This document shows, one piece after another, positions 11,768 to 41,194 of a stretch of 64,000 nucleotides of DNA. The position numbers and the translations under genes are program-made. Source of the DNA: Candidatus Desulfovibrio intestinipullorum (GTDB taxonomy: Bacteria > Desulfobacterota > Desulfovibrionia > Desulfovibrionales > Desulfovibrionaceae); NCBI GenBank assembly GCA_019113165.1, contig DXHV01000055.1:30009-94008 (forward strand), written 5' to 3'. The notes under the pieces are model-generated. The model was not told where the DNA came from. It saw only the letters and a list, made by a program, of their open reading frames with translations, and made no database searches. Each line of letters begins with the position of its first letter. Position 1 is the stretch's first letter.

Positions 11768-12021
11768 GTTGGAATCTTGACCTGACTCAAAGGGATTATG
11801 ACCCCGTAACCAGTGTGAATTCTAAGTCGTTTTCCTTTCTGTTGGAATCTTGACCTGACTCAAAGGGATTATGACCCTCTACCAGGGCGGTCCACTTGTC
11901 GTCGGTCTTGACGTTGGAATCTTGACCTGACTCAAAGGGATTATGACACGGCGTTTATAATTTCCGTATATTCCACGCCTACATTTGTTGGAATCTTGAC
12001 CTGACTCAAAAGGATTCCCAG
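11768..12021 (+). CRISPR. orphan mini CRISPR array A: 4 x 35-nt repeats (GTTGGAATCTTGACCTGACTCAAAGGGATTATGAC), 3 spacers of 37-39 nt
   Basis: Repeats at 11768, 11841, 11913 and 11987. The last repeat is degenerate in its 3' 11 nt. An AT-rich leader-like region lies upstream (11580-11760). Spacers are unique. No cas genes are in the window. Confidence 0.8.
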
Positions 12022-34837: not shown

Positions 34838-36313
34838 TCAGGGGCCCGGCCGCTGGCAGACAAGGCTCAGCCTCCGGCCGTTCTTGCTCACCACAATGCT
34901 GGCCGTGACCGGCATCACATAGAGGTGCACGTCCTCGCAGGCCGCACTGCGCTCCCAGGCAGGCCACACGGCCTGGTAGATGGAGCGCACATAGAGGCTG
35001 CCCTCGTAGGCCCAGACCTGGACCCCAGGGTCTGCGGGCCGGGTGCGCAGGCGCACGGCCCCCTTGGGCGGCACTCCGTGCACAAAGGCCAGCAGCTCCT
35101 CGCTCACCGGCTCCTGCTCAGGCCCCAGAACGGGTGTTCTGGCCCCAGGGCCTTCCTTCTGTACCCTGAAGATGGTGAGAGCATCGTTGAGGCGGCCTTC
35201 CCTGCGGCCGCTGCCCGTGACCAGATGCAGCACAACGGGGTACTCGGCCCCTTCCAGGGTGAGCACCAGGTTGGACGACGCATGGTCGCGCAAGGGGGCA
35301 AGGTTCACAATGTGGGAGTGGACATTGCGCTCGCCCTGCTCTGCCTCTGCGCCCTTCCCCCTGTTCTCTCCTGCAGCCGCTGCTTCCACCCGTGGCTGCG
35401 AGACCGCATAGGCCCTGGCATTGCCCAGAATGGCCGCGAGCACGGGCCAGGGGGCCCCGGTGACGTCCTGAAAGAGCAGTGTGGACGAATAGCCGGCCGT
35501 CAGATGAATGACCGGCGGTTCGTCCTGCACACTGCCTGACAGGGTGCGGGTATGGGTGCGCATGCGCGCCGGATCCGGCAGGGCCGCATTGTCCAGACGT
35601 TCCTTCTGATCGAGATAGGTACGCACCTCGTCCGGGCCCAGGGGGAGGAGGTCTTCCAGGGACCTGGCAAAGGCTTCCTCGTGCTGCTGATGGCGCAGGG
35701 CTTCTGCCTTTTTTCCGGCAGCCTTGGCGGCCTCTCGTGCGTCTGCGTCTGCTCCGGCAGGGACTCTGGCTGTGCCCTGAGTCCGGGCGGCTGTGCCTGT
35801 GGCCTCATCCTGCAATTGCAGAGACCCCGGGTCCTTCTGAGCCCCTTGTGCCGGCACGGGCGCCGGATCCTCGGGGACCAGGGCGGACCGGTCCTGAGCT
35901 GCCAGGGCCTCGGAGCCTGCCAGAACGACCAGGCAGAGGATCCAGGCACCGACCAGCAGCCGGAACACAAGCACAGGCAGCAGGAAGGGGGTGATCCTTC
36001 TGCCGGTCTGTCCCCTGTTCCTGGGCGTCAGGGAGCCTTCGGGCTGTTCGGCTGGTCCGGGCTTTCCGGGCATTTTTGTTCCGGGGATTCCGGGCATTGC
36101 GGACATTCTGATTGTTGCGCGGCCTTGTGATGCGCCTTCTGTGTCCGCTCCCCGGAGGCTGCTTCCTGCGAAAAAGGCTCTGTTCGCCAGGCTGCCGGCC
36201 CGAAGGCGGCAGGGGATGTGGCCCCTGGGCAGCTGGACACGGAGCAGCCTGCGGCCGGCAGGGCAAAAGCCCGTGCCGAAGCACGGCTGATGCTGAATGC
36301 GTGCGTGGTTCAT
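34838..36313 (-). CDS. icmK: DotH/IcmK (TraN-like) outer-membrane core-complex protein
   Basis: The C-terminal half (PVIHLTAGYSSTLLFQDVTGAPWPV..IVNLAPLRDHASSNLVLTLEGAEYPVVLHLV) matches DotH/IcmK. The signal-like segment is ITPFLLPVLVFRLLVGAWILCLVVLAGSEALA. The start is uncertain: ATG 36313 has an AGGAAG SD; alternatives are 36106, 36073, or GTG 36598. Confidence 0.7.
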   Translation of the reverse strand: MNHARIQHQPCFGTGFCPAGRRLLRVQLPRGHIPCRLRAGSLANRAFFAGSSLRGADTEGASQGRATIRMSAMPGIPGTKMPGKPGPAEQPEGSLTPRNRGQTGRRITPFLLPVLVFRLLVGAWILCLVVLAGSEALAAQDRSALVPEDPAPVPAQGAQKDPGSLQLQDEATGTAARTQGTARVPAGADADAREAAKAAGKKAEALRHQQHEEAFARSLEDLLPLGPDEVRTYLDQKERLDNAALPDPARMRTHTRTLSGSVQDEPPVIHLTAGYSSTLLFQDVTGAPWPVLAAILGNARAYAVSQPRVEAAAAGENRGKGAEAEQGERNVHSHIVNLAPLRDHASSNLVLTLEGAEYPVVLHLVTGSGRREGRLNDALTIFRVQKEGPGARTPVLGPEQEPVSEELLAFVHGVPPKGAVRLRTRPADPGVQVWAYEGSLYVRSIYQAVWPAWERSAACEDVHLYVMPVTASIVVSKNGRRLSLVCQRPGP

Positions 36314-36615
36314 GGTTCTTCCTAATGATTGTTCCTGTTGTTCTACCTGTTGTTCTGTGCTCTGTGCCGCCTGGGAATGCGCTCGCGGGGATGTCGCGGG
36401 CTTGTCTGCGGATCCCGGCATCGGCCTGTTCGCCTGGCCGTTCGTCTGGCTATTCGTCTGGCCGTTTGCCTGGGGCTTTGCGGCGAAGCCTCGGACTTTT
36501 GAGCAGGGCTCAGGACCCGGATGCATGATGCCAGGCAAAAATCCGTGTCCTGTCCTTCCCTGAGAATGTCTATTGGTTGAATGCTTTTTTGACTGCACGG
36601 ATTTTTGTTTTTGTC

Positions 36616-37785
36616 CTAGATGGCGCTCAGCAGGGTGCCAGGCCTGCGCTCGCCTTCAATGATGTCCAGCAGCATGTCGACACCGCCATTGCGCAGGAAC
36701 TCCGTACCCCTGGCGTTCTCGGCAAAGAGCCCCAGCAGCACGGACACAAAGAAGGCACGCTCCCTGCGGTGCTTTTCGGGCCAGAAAAGGATGCAGGCAT
36801 AGATGACCTCGGGATCCACAATGGCCAGCAGAAAGCCGCAGGCTTCGGGCTCAAAGAGGCTCCAGCCGCCAATGAAGCTGTAGAGACGCTTCAGGTCGGC
36901 TCGCACATCCCTGCGGCCCTGATCGTCCATGGCCAGAAAGCGGCCAAGCAGGATGCCCGAGAGCACCACAAAGTCCGAGGATCCCACAAAGGAGAGCGGG
37001 CACTGCAGGATCGTCTCCAGGGCCACCTTCTCGTCCTTCAGGATGTCGATGGCATTGATGCTGTCAATCCACTGGGCTTCGGCAGCAGACAACCCGGCCC
37101 TGGCATAGACGGCCTCGCTGCTGGCAGGACGCCGCTTCCAGGCGCGCTCTTCGGGGCTGCGCAGGCCGGCCTCCTGGTATCCGGCAGCAGTGCTGTCCTG
37201 ACGGTCTGCCAGACGGTCTGTCAGGCTGCGGGACAGGCGATCTTCGTATACAGCGGCGCCCAGGGCTTCCGTCTCTTCCCCGGAATCGTCCGCAGACCGG
37301 ACACGGGAGCTTTCGTACAGGGGGACAGAGGGACGGCCGGAAGGACTGGTGGAACGATTGCCCGAAGGATGGCCCAAAGGACTGGCAGACGGATTGCCCG
37401 AACGGTTGCCCGAAGGACTGGCAGACGGCCAGGCAGAGGGACGGGCAAAAGGACGGGCAGAAGAGCGGCCCAAATCCCTCTCTGCCGGACGGGCAAAGCT
37501 GTGCTGATACCTCTTTTCTGCAGACCCGCTGGCTGCCTCTTCCGCTTCCTGTTCCTGGAAATGAGCCTGCTCCAGTGCGTCCTTCAGTACGTCCTCCAAT
37601 ACCTCTTCCTGAGCCCATTCTGTCGCTGCCTGATGCTCCAGCCTGGTCTCTTCGTCCTGGTACTGCCCCTGTGTCGCCGCAAATGCTGCTTCAAAACTTT
37701 GCCTGCCTGCTAGGGACTGGCGCGTCGAAGGCTCTGCTGTCTGCAGGGGCCCTGGTGCTCCATTCTGTGCCTTGTATGTCTCCAT
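36616..37785 (-). CDS. hypothetical protein, first gene of the minus-strand T4BSS block
   Basis: SD GGAGGA before ATG 37785. 389 aa. Acidic N-terminus, a Ser/Pro/Arg repeat region (PSGNRS units), and a conserved-looking C-terminal ~170 aa. No family recognised. Confidence 0.5.
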   Translation of the reverse strand: METYKAQNGAPGPLQTAEPSTRQSLAGRQSFEAAFAATQGQYQDEETRLEHQAATEWAQEEVLEDVLKDALEQAHFQEQEAEEAASGSAEKRYQHSFARPAERDLGRSSARPFARPSAWPSASPSGNRSGNPSASPLGHPSGNRSTSPSGRPSVPLYESSRVRSADDSGEETEALGAAVYEDRLSRSLTDRLADRQDSTAAGYQEAGLRSPEERAWKRRPASSEAVYARAGLSAAEAQWIDSINAIDILKDEKVALETILQCPLSFVGSSDFVVLSGILLGRFLAMDDQGRRDVRADLKRLYSFIGGWSLFEPEACGFLLAIVDPEVIYACILFWPEKHRRERAFFVSVLLGLFAENARGTEFLRNGGVDMLLDIIEGERRPGTLLSAI

Positions 37786-39418
37786 AACTGCTTCCTCCGT
37801 TAAGGATGGGGTTTTCTGCCTGATGCTCTGTTCTGTTTTTTTTGATGCGGGTTTTTGAACGGATTTGGATATGGGGTTTGAAGAGGGGCTTTGGCAAGAG
37901 AGCCTCAGGCAGGGGGCGTCCGGTTTTCAAGACGTCCCCTGCCTGCAGGCTCTCCCTGCAAGGGACTGATTTTTTGTGTTGTCTTCCGGTCTTGTCTTCC
38001 CTGCGGACACTCATCCCAATTGTCTTTTTGTATCCCCTCCTGACCTGGGATACTCAAGACACAAGGACAAGGAATTGCAGGTTCAACAGCCATTGCTCCC
38101 GGTATGTACAAGGTTTTATTGTGCTGACAAGGGAGTGATGGCAAAGGAACTGGTTGCCTGTTCGTTTCTGAAAAAGCCTGACGGCCGATCAGATCTGACC
38201 GGCCGGCCCGCTTGGGGTGCCCTGGGTGATGTGTCCGGGCGGACAGGATGTCTGCCCAGGGGCCCCGGCTGCAGCTGATCCTTTATAAGGACAGACAGCT
38301 GGTCAGGGCATCATGCCGGCCCCCTGTCCGCTGCCCCGCATGCGGGCAGTCCGGTTTTTCGCAGAACGTGCTGCTCGTATAAACATGTCATAATTTTTTG
38401 TCAAGAAAAAAATTTTGTGCGCCAGTAAAAATATGACAGGGCAGCTGTCAGGCTGACGTTCTGTTAATTCCATGAATTATCTTGTCAAAATTCTAAATAC
38501 TACTTTCATAGTGTTAAAGTCAGTTATTTTTACAATTTTATAACTTGACTCAAATTCCCCGGAATATCCGATCTTTTTCTTCCCGAGAAATTTCTGCTGC
38601 CTGCCTTGCAGCTCACAGGCCTGCGGCCCGGGCTGTGTGCCTCGGAAGGGACAGCCTCGGTCCTGGATGTGGCGGATACAGGGCACAGAGGGCAAGGGCT
38701 GGGCCGGAGGCTGGGCCCCGGATACCCTGGGGATGCGCAGCGACTAGTATTTTGTTTTTGAAGTTCGTTAACAAGTCTGGATTGGGAAAAATCCATTTTC
38801 CACCATATTGTAGGAATTTCTTTGCCTATTAACGAACTTAGAGAACGCTATACTAGTCCCCTGCCCTGTGCGAGGGGTCCTGATGCCACAGGGCTCGCTC
38901 TGGCACCTGAAAGGCCTTGGGGGATGCAGGGACGAATGTGCCCTGGAGTCCTTTGGCAGTCCCCCTGCTCAGTCCGGTGCAGTGGCAGTCGTGCTCTCAG
39001 CTGCCTCATCGAAGGGGACTTGAGGCACAAGGTCGCAAGCCTCACATGCGGACGTTTGGCCAGGGACAAGACTGGCACCTAAGCAGGTGCCCGTTCCCTG
39101 TCTTGCTTGTGTGAACAGGCAAAAGGAGGTCCGCATCCACCATTGCCTGCCCTGTCTATGTATATAATATATATTATAGTATACTTATTAATTAAGCAAC
39201 GGGGTCTCAAAGGCTCGCGGCTAATTTTTCAAGTTCTTAATATTGTTGACTCTTTTTTAAAGACAGACCTTGAGGTGGTTAATGGGCTGATTTCAAGGAG
39301 TTACAAGATATTCTTTGCCGTTTTTTTTGCTTTGTTTGTAAAAAATGGGCATTTTCACGCAACCCGGTTAATTTTCACCTTTCAAGTCATTGACAAGTCT
39401 TAGCTTTCTGAGCATACT

Positions 39419-39651
39419 CTTGCACAGACCTTCCAGCTGGAGGGGGTTACGACCATTCCGTTCATTAATTTCGTCAGGAGTGAAGCTTGCACAGACCTTC
39501 CAGCTGGAGGGGGTTACGACTATGTCTCCAGCCGCCCAAGGCTCATAAACTTGCACAGACCTTCCAGCTGGAGGGGGTTACGACCAGGATTCGTTCTGGA
39601 ACGTCATTTCGACGTTTTCGCAGAGTCCCCTCGACTGAAGGGGCTCTGCTC
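39419..39651 (+). CRISPR. mini CRISPR array B: 3 perfect 35-nt repeats (CTTGCACAGACCTTCCAGCTGGAGGGGGTTACGAC) plus 1 degenerate terminal repeat; spacers 32, 29 and 32 nt
   Basis: Repeats at 39419, 39486 and 39550. A degenerate copy at about 39617 matches in roughly half its positions. A strongly AT-rich leader-like region lies upstream (39150-39418). No cas genes are in the window. Confidence 0.7.
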
Positions 39652-39890
39652 TCCTTCCACAACTGGCCTCACCCCCAAGCCCCCATCCTTGATAAGACTG
39701 CCCTTCTCTCCTGACGAGCTCCCTTCTGCCCCAGGTCATCCTTCCCTGGTGCAGCCTGCCTTCGCCTGGCCAAAAAACCGTCAGCCCCCCAAACTGGCTC
39801 TGGACGCCCCCGAACAGGCCCTGGTCAGGCTCTGATCAGACTCCGACCGAGCCCCCGAAAAAAAATTTTTCGATTCCAGAAAATTTTTTC

Positions 39891-39919
39891 TTGACATGTC
39901 AGAAAAATGTTGCTAGATC
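39891..39919 (+). promoter_or_regulatory. sigma70-like promoter TTGACA-N17-(TGc)TAGATC with A/T-rich UP-like tract, pointing at the dotD block
   Basis: Read directly: ttgaca 39891-39896, 17-nt spacer, tagatc 39914-39919, preceded by aaaaaaaatttttcgattccagaaaatttttt. About 480 nt upstream of ATG 40400. Confidence 0.4.
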
Positions 39920-40399
39920 GTGCCCGTCAGGAAGACGCTTCAGGACCGCTGCCCCCTCTGGCCAGAAAACAAGACCAGACAGCAGGGGTGTCGGATCTCT
40001 GAATCAGCCGTCCTTACCAGTCAGCGATCAGACGCGCTCTCTGCCTTCCCTTTTGTCTGTACAGACCTGCTTTTGTGCAGACTGTGCCCGGGCAGATGGT
40101 GCGCTGACCTGCATTCAGGGTGTGTCTGCAGGCATCCCTAGAAGAAAACACCACCCAAAAAACAGCCCGACCAAAACGCATAAGAAAGCCCATCAACAGT
40201 CAGCCCCGGACGTATCGGGTTCCTGCTTCATGCATGTCCCGGACATTCCGACACCATCAGCGGCTCTGCACTCTGGGGAAGTCCCGCAAAAAACCGTCTC
40301 CCCTGCAGCCGCATCACTGAAAAAAACAAACGACAATCAGCCCCTGCAAGGAGCATTCAGACTTCTTCGCCCCAAAAACCAAGACACCAGGGAGGAGTT

Positions 40400-41194
40400 A
40401 TGCGCCCATACGGCAGGAATCGCTGTGCCCTACACAGTCTGCCAGAAAGCAGGCACGCTCCGGCAGAAAGGAGCAGTCTGCACAAATCATGCTGCCAGAT
40501 TTCAGGCAGAATCACGCACCCCGTCCTCAGGGAAGAAAAACAGCAAGACCATACCGCCTGCAGCACTCGGCCAGGACTGAAGCCCCTTCAAAAGAAGCGT
40601 TCTCAGAAGCGTTCACGCAAGGATCCGGCAAAAAAGGCCGCCCAAACACCCCTCCGCCCCATCCTGCAGATCTGTTCGCTCGCCCTGATCGTTCTGCTGC
40701 CCCTGCTTGCGTGCAGCTGTGCCCTGACAAAAAATGCAGCCAGGGCCCCGGACGAACAGAAGAGCGTGGATCAGTCCCTCCATGATGCCGCCAATGTCAT
40801 CATGGCGGATCTCGCAAGGCTCACGGGCTCCTACCAGAGCTATGACGCAAGCCATGCCGCAAGTCCCCTGCAGGAGCGCATGAACCTGCGCTTTGAAGGA
40901 CCCTTGCAGGAAGCCCTGGGCAGGGTCTGCGCCCATATCGGCTACCGTCTGGTCATTGTGGGCACGCCCAGGCCTGCGCCGGTCCTTGTGCATGTGCAGG
41001 CACGGGAGACGCCCGTGCTGCACATCCTGCGCGAGCTGGGCCTGCAGACCGGGCCCTACGAGCAGATTCGGGTGGTGGAGGAAGGCCGCTTCATCGAGCT
41101 CACCTGGCTTGATCCGGCAACCAATCTGCCCAACCGCTACGGCCCTGTGAAGAAGAAGCACGCACAGGGCAGCCGCACAGGCAGAGATAGGTAA
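40400..41194 (+). CDS. dotD: DotD/TraH-family T4BSS lipoprotein
   Basis: SD GGGAGGAG before ATG 40400. Lipobox LLPLLAC/S. The C-terminal domain (LRFEGPLQEALGRVCAHIGYRLVIVGTPRPAPVLVHVQARETPVLHILRELGLQTG) matches the DotD N0-like domain. The lipobox lies about 85 aa from this start, so the true start may be a downstream non-ATG codon. Confidence 0.7.
   Translation: MRPYGRNRCALHSLPESRHAPAERSSLHKSCCQISGRITHPVLREEKQQDHTACSTRPGLKPLQKKRSQKRSRKDPAKKAAQTPLRPILQICSLALIVLLPLLACSCALTKNAARAPDEQKSVDQSLHDAANVIMADLARLTGSYQSYDASHAASPLQERMNLRFEGPLQEALGRVCAHIGYRLVIVGTPRPAPVLVHVQARETPVLHILRELGLQTGPYEQIRVVEEGRFIELTWLDPATNLPNRYGPVKKKHAQGSRTGRDR

Follow-up and report, generated by a model that had tools for sequence, protein, structure and literature searches.

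A small CRISPR array without adjoining cas genes between divergent type IVB secretion operons of a chicken-gut Desulfovibrio, and its dispersed repeat family

Introduction

The stretch of DNA analysed here, 64,000 nt of contig DXHV01000055.1 of Candidatus Desulfovibrio intestinipullorum (assembly GCA_019113165.1, positions 30,009 to 94,008; hereafter the window), carries two blocks of type IVB secretion system (T4BSS) genes that diverge from a gene-free hub, and within this hub lies a short cluster of direct repeats, array B. The question that this locus raises is whether the repeats form a genuine CRISPR array and, if so, whether that array belongs to the T4BSS element or to its host. In the original prediction it was read as a mini array through which the element may carry its own CRISPR RNAs (crRNAs) for conflict with other elements.

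The explanation preferred in this study, with a probability of roughly 0.7, is that array B is a genuine small cas-less array of a dispersed, lineage-specific family with host-type repeats, that it is a long-standing passenger of the T4BSS, and that it would supply crRNAs to a type III system in trans.

A CRISPR array in the hub

The hallmark of a CRISPR array is a series of at least three regularly spaced, nearly identical direct repeats 23-55 nt long. The features of array B, all on the plus strand, are as follows.

39022..39418, +, CRISPR leader, located by BLAST of the hub against its own genome and by leader alignment
39390..39418, +, sigma-70-type promoter TTGACA-17-CATACT, 10 of 12 consensus matches in a promoter scan
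39419..39453, +, repeat 1 (35 nt), exact copy
39454..39485, +, spacer 1 (32 nt), with other letters here in one contig of metagenome run X2
39486..39520, +, repeat 2, same as repeat 1
39521..39549, +, spacer 2 (29 nt)
39550..39584, +, repeat 3, same as repeat 1
39585..39616, +, spacer 3 (32 nt)
39617..39651, +, degenerate terminal repeat (19/35), with a matching tail after the hub array of a sister metagenome-assembled genome (MAG)

The 35-nt repeat, CTTGCACAGACCTTCCAGCTGGAGGGGGTTACGAC, is present in three exact copies with start-to-start distances of 67 and 64 nt, and every one of the spacers of 32, 29 and 32 nt is unique. The fourth unit shares 19 of 35 positions with the repeat, chiefly across a hairpin, which it retains, and its 3' GTTACGAC end is gone; this decay of the leader-distal repeat is common to array B and the sister arrays of the same genome. 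Only two 35-mers are present at least three times in the window, namely the repeats of array B and of a second cluster, array A, and a pattern search of the whole genome (2.77 Mb) returned three matches to the array B repeat and none to a reversed-pattern control. The three perfect and one degenerate 35-nt repeats with 32/29/32-nt spacers that had been predicted at 39419-39651 are thus borne out by the coordinates and the 35-mer count. An Rfam scan of 37000-41000 at E <= 1 gave chance miRNA-like matches only.

Homology to the leaders of the sister arrays sets in at 39022-39058 and is strongest in the last ~265 nt, and the array B leader is 72-82% identical, pairwise, to five sister leaders in its own genome. 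The promoter ends one base before repeat 1, and both of its hexamers are kept in the six leader-bearing arrays of this genome and in four arrays of the sister MAG. The leader-like region had been described as nearly pure A/T; a leader is indeed present, but such an AT-rich stretch makes up only ~40 nt of it (about 39159-39200).

Fifteen repeats (13 distinct) from this genome, the sister MAG and a further genome of the same bacterial family, G050, were aligned. They share a hairpin with a 6-bp stem and a 4-nt loop, in which 78 of 78 stem cells pair over the 13 distinct variants and two pairs are altered on both sides (U-A to C-G and C-G to A-U). The resulting covariation score was reached by 0 of 500 shuffles, and folding the array B repeat as a single sequence gives the same stem at -9.2 kcal/mol. 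All 15 aligned variants end in TTACGAC at the 3' side, 14 of them in GTTACGAC.

Direct repeats in the intergenic hub of a plasmid-like gene cluster could also be iterons, or binding sites for a partition protein of the element. Iterons are typically about 17-22 bp long, have no unique spacers, lie beside a rep or par gene and are under no RNA-structure constraint. The repeats in the hub, by contrast, are 35-nt units split by unique spacers of 29-32 nt, their hairpin is maintained by compensatory changes, their promoter-bearing leader is common to chromosomal arrays, their spacers are replaced between orthologous loci, and related repeats flank cas operons in two genomes of the bacterial family (G043 and G050). 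Pfam scans found no rep or par family among the flanking open reading frames (ORFs). The leader, the hairpin covariation and the decay of the terminal repeat therefore exclude iterons, and this explanation, which the unique spacers also contradict, was rejected as having next to no probability. An iteron-like function was one of the ways in which, according to the original prediction, it might fail, and hairpin covariation, shared leader and spacer turnover all contradict it.

Because the hairpin carries compensatory changes, the leader is conserved and the spacers at the same locus of a sister species are wholly different, array B is a genuine, small, three-spacer CRISPR array. It has no adjoining cas gene, with no cas match among 67 window ORFs that were scanned (Pfam; eight also by NCBIfam and eight by PADLOC).

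A repeat family dispersed over the genome

A k-mer scan and a fuzzy search of the contigs of this genome found 24 units of the array B repeat family at seven loci on six contigs, distributed as below.

Contig C6, three units
Contig C17, one lone degenerate repeat (C17a) and a separate one-spacer array
Contig C28, array B, three units
Contig C74, five units and one degenerate
Contig C79, six units and one degenerate
Contig C83, two units scored, with an additional truncated unit also seen

The repeat variant is private to each array and identical within it, and six of the seven loci have a homologous leader of about 265-330 nt that includes both promoter hexamers. No cas genes were found among the neighbours of the other arrays, which encode MetRS, SmpB, phosphotransferase system (PTS) components, metal ATPases, GroEL, transporters and others, and none of the 21 spacers of this genome's arrays has a second match anywhere in the genome. 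As the other arrays of the family lie mostly beside housekeeping genes, array B is not private to the T4BSS region but represents a host repeat family that is dispersed over seven loci or more. The proposal that the element has crRNAs of its own is not supported as far as repeat and leader are concerned, since both recur at six other loci among housekeeping genes, and the local sequence by itself does not justify an element-specific reading.

At C17a (contig C17, 600-960), only one degenerate repeat and a terminator-like tail come after a full leader, as in an emptied array, and the C83 array (690-1200) has lost the family leader that is still present in its MAG ortholog (L026). Two further clusters lie outside the family. 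A type I-E-like array fragment with a repeat of ~29 nt and a period of 61 is situated at the contig end of C6 (16143-16234), with no Cas7e/Cse4 and no Cas1 found in the genome, and three tandem near-identical tRNA-like genes with short AT-rich spacers on C83 (29626-29901) were picked by the array scan and are not CRISPR.

Among 185,579 species genomes, the stricter family repeat pattern was found in only one other, the sister MAG, and no match to the repeat pattern was found in JGI metagenome contigs. The repeat skeleton pattern was found in two of 300 other genomes of the bacterial family, G043 and G050. G050 has three arrays whose repeat, CTTGCAGTGACCTTCAGGCCTGGAGGGGTTACGAC, is identical to that of array B at 27 of 35 positions (BLAST against the 300 genomes), and the G043 repeat, GTTGAAGTGACCCCGGAGCTCTGGGGGGTTACGAC, has the same AGCU loop and 3' end as the array B family. 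On this sampling, the array B repeat family is restricted to this lineage.

The same hub in a sister species

The sole other genome with the family repeat, an uncultured Desulfovibrio MAG, has arrays with the same leader type on four contigs. Its locus L027 is the ortholog of the C74 locus (flanks 90-93% identical), L026 that of the C83 locus, and L029 that of the T4BSS hub, where DotH and the 389-aa gene next to it are 78-88% identical at the nucleotide level, the DNA between the array and DotD matches at 71%, and the same tail comes after the array. Between this genome and the MAG, T4BSS DNA is therefore 71-88% identical as against 90-93% for housekeeping flanks. The orthologous arrays have no spacer in common at any locus, and the leaders of C74 and L027 are 98% identical yet share zero spacers. 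The two hub leaders, as opposed to that chromosomal pair, are only 69% identical; they do not pair in the leader tree, and that of array B is nearer to its own chromosomal leaders (80-82%). The MAG hub array contains the same 33-nt spacer twice in succession (L029 4831-4997).

Because the array lies in the same hub of the sister species despite the deep T4BSS divergence, these comparisons suggest that it travels with this T4BSS element lineage. The two T4BSS copies appear to belong to element lineages that have evolved apart, each with an array retained at this place. Exchange of leader and repeats with the arrays of the host may have occurred. Whether the array accompanies the T4BSS region in other genomes was a check put forward with the original prediction: an array is present in the same hub of the MAG, the one close relative of the element, and none was found in 17 DotD-upstream regions of 15 genomes of the bacterial family with distant T4BSS (DotD 25-39% identity; G063 excluded for its short contig).

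Turnover of the spacers is also hinted at by public chicken and bird gut metagenome runs. One contig of run X2 has the leader and repeats of array B with a different spacer 1, and one contig of run X13, again with the array B leader, passes from repeat 1 to the tail by way of another 30-nt spacer; both observations come from contigs only, at a depth of 3-4, and are weak. Spacers apparently differ between metagenome samples.

The conserved location bears on a reading of the array as a weapon of the element, that is, a T4BSS guide cassette that borrows the host Cas6 and type III machinery against competing plasmids, integrative and conjugative elements (ICEs) and phages. Such a role would fit the shared hub position of arrays in two T4BSS copies whose divergence greatly exceeds that of the host chromosomes (leaders 69% vs 98%), the compatibility of the array B repeats with the host Cas6, and published accounts of an enrichment of orphan arrays on conjugative plasmids and of their presence on ICEs (PMC9071438; PMC9841420). 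Yet the same family is present at six chromosomal loci, so nothing sets the hub copy apart, its leader is closer to those of its own chromosome than to the other hub leader, and no spacer matches a plasmid, an ICE-bearing genome, a phage or the sister element. As regards mobility, the array is surrounded by T4BSS genes resembling mating pair formation system type I (MPF-I) and by IncI-like thin-pilus genes, and the region is far more diverged between the two species than the chromosome; a PF03432 relaxase was not found in the genome, nor a tRNA in the 64-kb window, and a DNA search with the left flank in 30 genomes of the genus returned mainly an aldehyde-oxidoreductase gene (best 67-84%) and defined no insertion site. 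The weapon reading is unlikely on this evidence. A fuller version of it would hold that a lineage of MPF-I/T4BSS conjugative elements has carried the array between its transfer operons since before the two copies diverged, has kept it usable by recombining leader and repeats with host arrays, and plugs its own guides into the Cas6/type III machinery of whichever host it currently occupies, with the array transcribed together with the transfer genes; this version is speculative and has a rather low probability.

A regulatory cassette, in which the leader promoter or crRNA-like RNAs tune the T4BSS operons through read-through into dotD or partial complementarity, was considered as well. The predicted promoter points towards dotD from ~750 nt upstream, the array position is conserved in two elements, and regulatory crRNA-like RNAs from mini-arrays have been described (bioRxiv 10.1101/2024.10.29.618823). 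However, the spacers of the hub arrays are not conserved between the two species, no spacer has a second match in its own genome, and identical modules adjoin unrelated housekeeping genes, leaving regulation of the T4BSS operons a very improbable role.

A Cas6 and a type III operon on other contigs

A stand-alone Cas6 of 353 aa is encoded on contig C74 (4487-5548; PADLOC Cas6 models, E = 4e-10), and when proteins of a type III-D-like locus of G050 were used as probes on this genome, only the Cas6 domain of its Cas6-RT-Cas1 fusion matched, at C74:4565-5374 (34% identity, E = 3e-21). The gene is intact in the sister MAG (86% identical, dN/dS 0.26) and has homologs in three of the 300 other genomes of the bacterial family, namely G050, G043 and G063; the protein was not found in metagenome contigs. 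On C74 (707-7963), it is flanked by uncharacterised genes of 377, 777, 470 and 212 aa, followed by an ankyrin-repeat protein, and together with the 470- and 777-aa genes it is syntenic in the MAG (83-87% nucleotide identity). Only a TPR-like stretch was recognized in the 777-aa neighbour, and searches with the 470-aa neighbour gave no family, PDB or atlas lead.

In the three genomes, the Cas6 homologs occur with two kinds of type III system. In G050, the arrays flank a type III-D-like locus with a small Cas10, three Cas7-IIId-type fusions, a 909-aa fusion of Cas6, reverse transcriptase (RT) and Cas1, and Cas2, with CARF proteins nearby, and G043 has a Cas6-Cas1 fusion in another III-D-like locus flanked by related repeats. 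Probes from the III-D locus of G050 found no RT-Cas1 and no III-D-type Cas7 or Cas10 in this genome. G063 has a 55%-identical Cas6 on one 6-kb contig with Cas10c, Cmr4, Cmr5 and Cmr3, and these four proteins are 58-72% identical to those encoded on contig C19 (6.9 kb) of this genome, where PADLOC identified Cas10c (871 aa), Cmr4, Cmr5 and Cmr3. The best relative of C19 in a 400-genome sample of the phylum is in G377 (32-37% identity, BLASTP/tblastn), which has the full order Cas6, Cmr1, a small ORF, Cmr6, Cas10c, Cmr4, Cmr5, Cmr3 and then two arrays with repeats ending GGGGTTGAGAC. A cas locus matching the repeats had been called for alongside the original prediction; a host Cas6 and a degraded type III-C operon are present, but on other contigs. 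They are read here as parts of a single Cas6/type III system whose III-C module and Cas6 were separated and damaged in this genome. Beside cmr3, a PDC-S29/EcsC-like candidate defence gene (C19 955-1616) is apparently split into overlapping frames of 75 and 156 aa.

Judging from the sequence features, transcription of the array would start at the TTGACA-17-CATACT promoter and run towards dotD, and the Cas6 of C74 would cut each repeat 3' of the hairpin, leaving an 8-nt GUUACGAC handle. The crRNAs would then load a type III effector acting in trans on the transcripts of invaders. The hub copy would be a long-standing passenger of the T4BSS element lineage that uses the host repeat family and not a private system.

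Spacer targets and missing cas genes

A number of results weigh against this explanation. No target was found for array B or the C79 array among phages and plasmids (blastn, E <= 1), nor for the three array B spacers in IMG/VR, where only exact matches were sought. Against the 300 genomes of the bacterial family, array B gave only matches of 18-24 nt (E 0.016-0.1) and no credible protospacer, and the spacers of this genome and of the MAG have no target in each other's DNA. The comparison of spacers with plasmid, ICE and phage DNA that had been put forward with the prediction therefore gave no match in phages, plasmids, viral contigs, family genomes or the sister element. As for expression, no RNA run is among the runs listed as holding this stretch.

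The cas complement is also deficient. A profile search for Cas1 (PF01867) found nothing in this genome, which is 98.3% complete, or in the MAG contigs, and Cas2 gave no match with the G050 protein, the sole probe used. The MAG contigs have no detectable Cas10c or TIGR01877 Cas6 homolog. In this genome, PF01881 and TIGR01877 (Cas6) gave no match and the Cas6 of C74 scored 19.6 bits with Pfam PF10040, under the 25-bit cut-off, so that its assignment is based on the PADLOC models and on homology to the fusion proteins. The RAMP family has a single match in the genome, on contig C19; with G377 tblastn probes, Cmr1 and Cmr6 were not found in the genome and only the last four genes match. The Cas10c of C19 aligns from residue 76 of the G377 protein and is without the LHDVGK (HD) segment, and the 145 nt upstream of cas10c (C19 6773-6917) are the end of a multi-copy insertion sequence (IS)-like element. 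Array B-type repeats were not found in the fragmentary assembly of G063, and the tie of the repeat family to type III-C rather than III-D is indirect.

With its upstream genes and HD segment missing and an IS end abutting it, the effector operon of C19 is a truncated remnant in this assembly. Since Cas10c is without its HD segment and Cmr1, Cmr6 and Cas1 were not found, the array would now be idle, or reliant on cas genes that differ within the population or that the assembly lacks. A copy of the IS-like terminus on C44 (62562-62706) is 98.6% identical and has an ORF after it, and weaker copies are found on C50, C43 and C54 and just upstream of the C17a leader.

The same deficiencies would be expected if the arrays were decaying relics, left over from a lost type III system and now functionless. 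Besides the truncated, IS-abutted Cas10c, the Cas1, Cmr1 and Cmr6 genes that were not found, and Cas2, for which the G050 probe gave no match, the arrays are all short (1-6 spacers), C17a has a lone degenerate repeat and C83 is without a leader; elsewhere, the mean length of orphan arrays is below that of cas-associated arrays, and they may have been left behind by systems in decay (PMC9071438). On the other hand, repeats are still identical within each array, conservation extends to the promoter hexamers, both species have an intact Cas6 (dN/dS 0.26), near-identical leaders carry different spacers in different samples, and a draft assembly in 87 contigs can miss cas genes. A relic without function is held to be improbable, and a passenger array drawing on type III proteins in trans is still preferred.

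Two spacer comparisons and one RNA candidate deserve mention in their own right. Spacer 1 gave 12-nt seed matches in eight distant T4BSS loci, which turned out to be due to chance, the best full-length match being 20/32 against a shuffled maximum of 21. Spacer 1 of the C79 array (L007 15459-15491) matches 25 of 33 positions at L064 43-75, where the shuffled maximum was 22; L064 is a distant T4BSS-adjacent locus of another member of the genus, and the match, the only one above its control and marginally so, could be a diverged protospacer or chance. Run X13, considered as a source of RNA, is probably DNA.

The hub and its surroundings

The hub measures 2.6 kb and has the following borders and additional features.

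36616..37785, -, 389-aa ORF, first gene of the minus-strand T4BSS block and left hub border
38490..38517, -, promoter-like site TTAACA-16-TAGAAT facing the minus-strand T4BSS block, 10 of 12 positions, consensus match only
38741..38857, strand not applicable, insertion resembling a miniature inverted-repeat transposable element (MITE), with 30-nt inverted-repeat arms and a 57-nt core (~115 bp)
40400..41194, +, DotD, first gene of the plus-strand T4BSS block and right hub border (Pfam PF16816, E = 4e-16)

The 389-aa ORF, which has no Pfam or NCBIfam match, follows DotH/IcmK (34838-36598), and seven ORFs of 94-229 aa within or overlapping the hub are without Pfam match. The T4BSS genes around the hub were assigned by Pfam to DotI/IcmL, a TrbI-like protein, DotH, DotD, a TraI/DotC-like lipoprotein, two T2SSE ATPases and DotM, and they are adjoined by an IncI-like thin-pilus set of a PilS-like pilin, a shufflon-type PilV, TcpQ, a secretin and a prepilin peptidase. 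In 400-nt windows, the GC content of the hub falls to a minimum of 43.5% vs 58-65% in the flanking genes. The MITE-like element has eight more copies at 97-99% identity, on C33, C87, C56, C46, C35, C31, C18 and C5, and its insertion site is a pile-up of many metagenome contigs. The hub is thus 2.6 kb of gene-free DNA between divergent T4BSS blocks, as predicted, but it is not made up of regulatory DNA alone, as it also took up this insertion.

Array A (window 11768-12019) has another 35-nt repeat, GTTGGAATCTTGACCTGACTCAAAGGGATTATGAC, in three exact copies and a decayed fourth, with spacers of 37-38 nt. It is located between an Fe-alcohol-dehydrogenase gene and two MoeA genes, its repeat is unique in the genome and it has no adjoining cas gene; the ends of its repeat (xTTGxA ... 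GGGxTTAxGAC) are similar to those of array B. A 1270-aa ORF beside it was considered as a possible effector and rejected as an antisense artefact of the two MoeA genes.

Comparison with known systems

That mobile elements can carry cas-less arrays, which the prediction took as established, is documented for plasmids (PMC9071438) and for ICEs and integrative and mobilizable elements (IMEs) (Botelho et al., NAR 2023, PMC9841420). Pinilla-Redondo et al. (NAR, PMC9071438) reported 207 orphan arrays on plasmids, which are shorter than cas-linked arrays, found conjugative functions to be overrepresented among plasmids with CRISPR-Cas components, and suggested that orphan arrays may draw on Cas proteins of the host in trans. 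Array B is likewise short, without adjoining cas genes, situated within a conjugation-type cluster and presumed to depend on Cas proteins in trans. It differs in that repeats and leaders of its family are dispersed over the chromosome of the host as well, that the candidate element is a T4BSS block, that it lies between divergent T4BSS promoters as opposed to a cargo-gene location, and that no match was found for its spacers, while the published spacers of plasmid and ICE arrays often match other mobile genetic elements.

A parallel for the dispersal is CRISPR3 of Pseudomonas aeruginosa (type I-F), described as isolated arrays with leaders that match the cas-adjacent array and spread by mobile elements (PMC13142298). 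Both involve arrays far from cas genes, with near-matching leaders and a mobile-element association, that are thought to spread by recombination, but P. aeruginosa has complete and demonstrably active type I-F cas genes, whereas the system here is Cas6/type III-like, has at least seven loci, and its effector and adaptation genes are truncated or were not found.

Fusions of Cas6, RT and Cas1, or of RT and Cas1, are known from type III systems (PMC8102632; PMC6821258; PMC5513706). The repeats of G050 and G043 belong to the same superfamily as those of array B and the Cas6 of this genome is homologous to the Cas6 domain of such fusions; unlike those systems, this genome has the Cas6 part alone, as a separate gene. 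In common with the type III-C locus of G377, it has the order Cas10c-Cmr4-Cmr5-Cmr3, and the G377 repeats end GGGGTTGAGAC compared with GGGGGTTACGAC here, but its own operon is without the upstream Cas6, Cmr1, Cmr6 and Cas10c HD N-terminus and is IS-abutted, and the G377 repeats, of ~30 nt, are apart from their ends unlike array B.

Virus-borne mini-CRISPR arrays, which take part in conflict between viruses (Medvedeva et al., Nat Commun 2019, PMC6858448), are cas-less, with 1-3 spacers and host repeats, as is array B. Their spacers match competing viruses, however, whilst no target was found for array B, the carrier of which is a conjugation-type cluster.

Significance

Cas-less arrays on conjugative elements are already known, and array B is real and well formed. 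What is unusual, and worth a note, is its position between divergent T4BSS operons in two deeply diverged copies, as well as the many tiny sister arrays alongside a broken cas complement. The value of these findings is mostly descriptive, in that a Desulfovibrio lineage of the chicken gut has numerous tiny arrays at dispersed loci, a stand-alone Cas6 that is conserved, and an IS-broken III-C operon, and the CRISPR system of this lineage looks like one in decay or in flux. If the hub array belongs to the element, this would be a case in which a conjugative element has put guide RNAs where its transfer genes are controlled, and in which host and element arrays exchange leaders and repeats, which would bear on how CRISPR memory moves between genomes.

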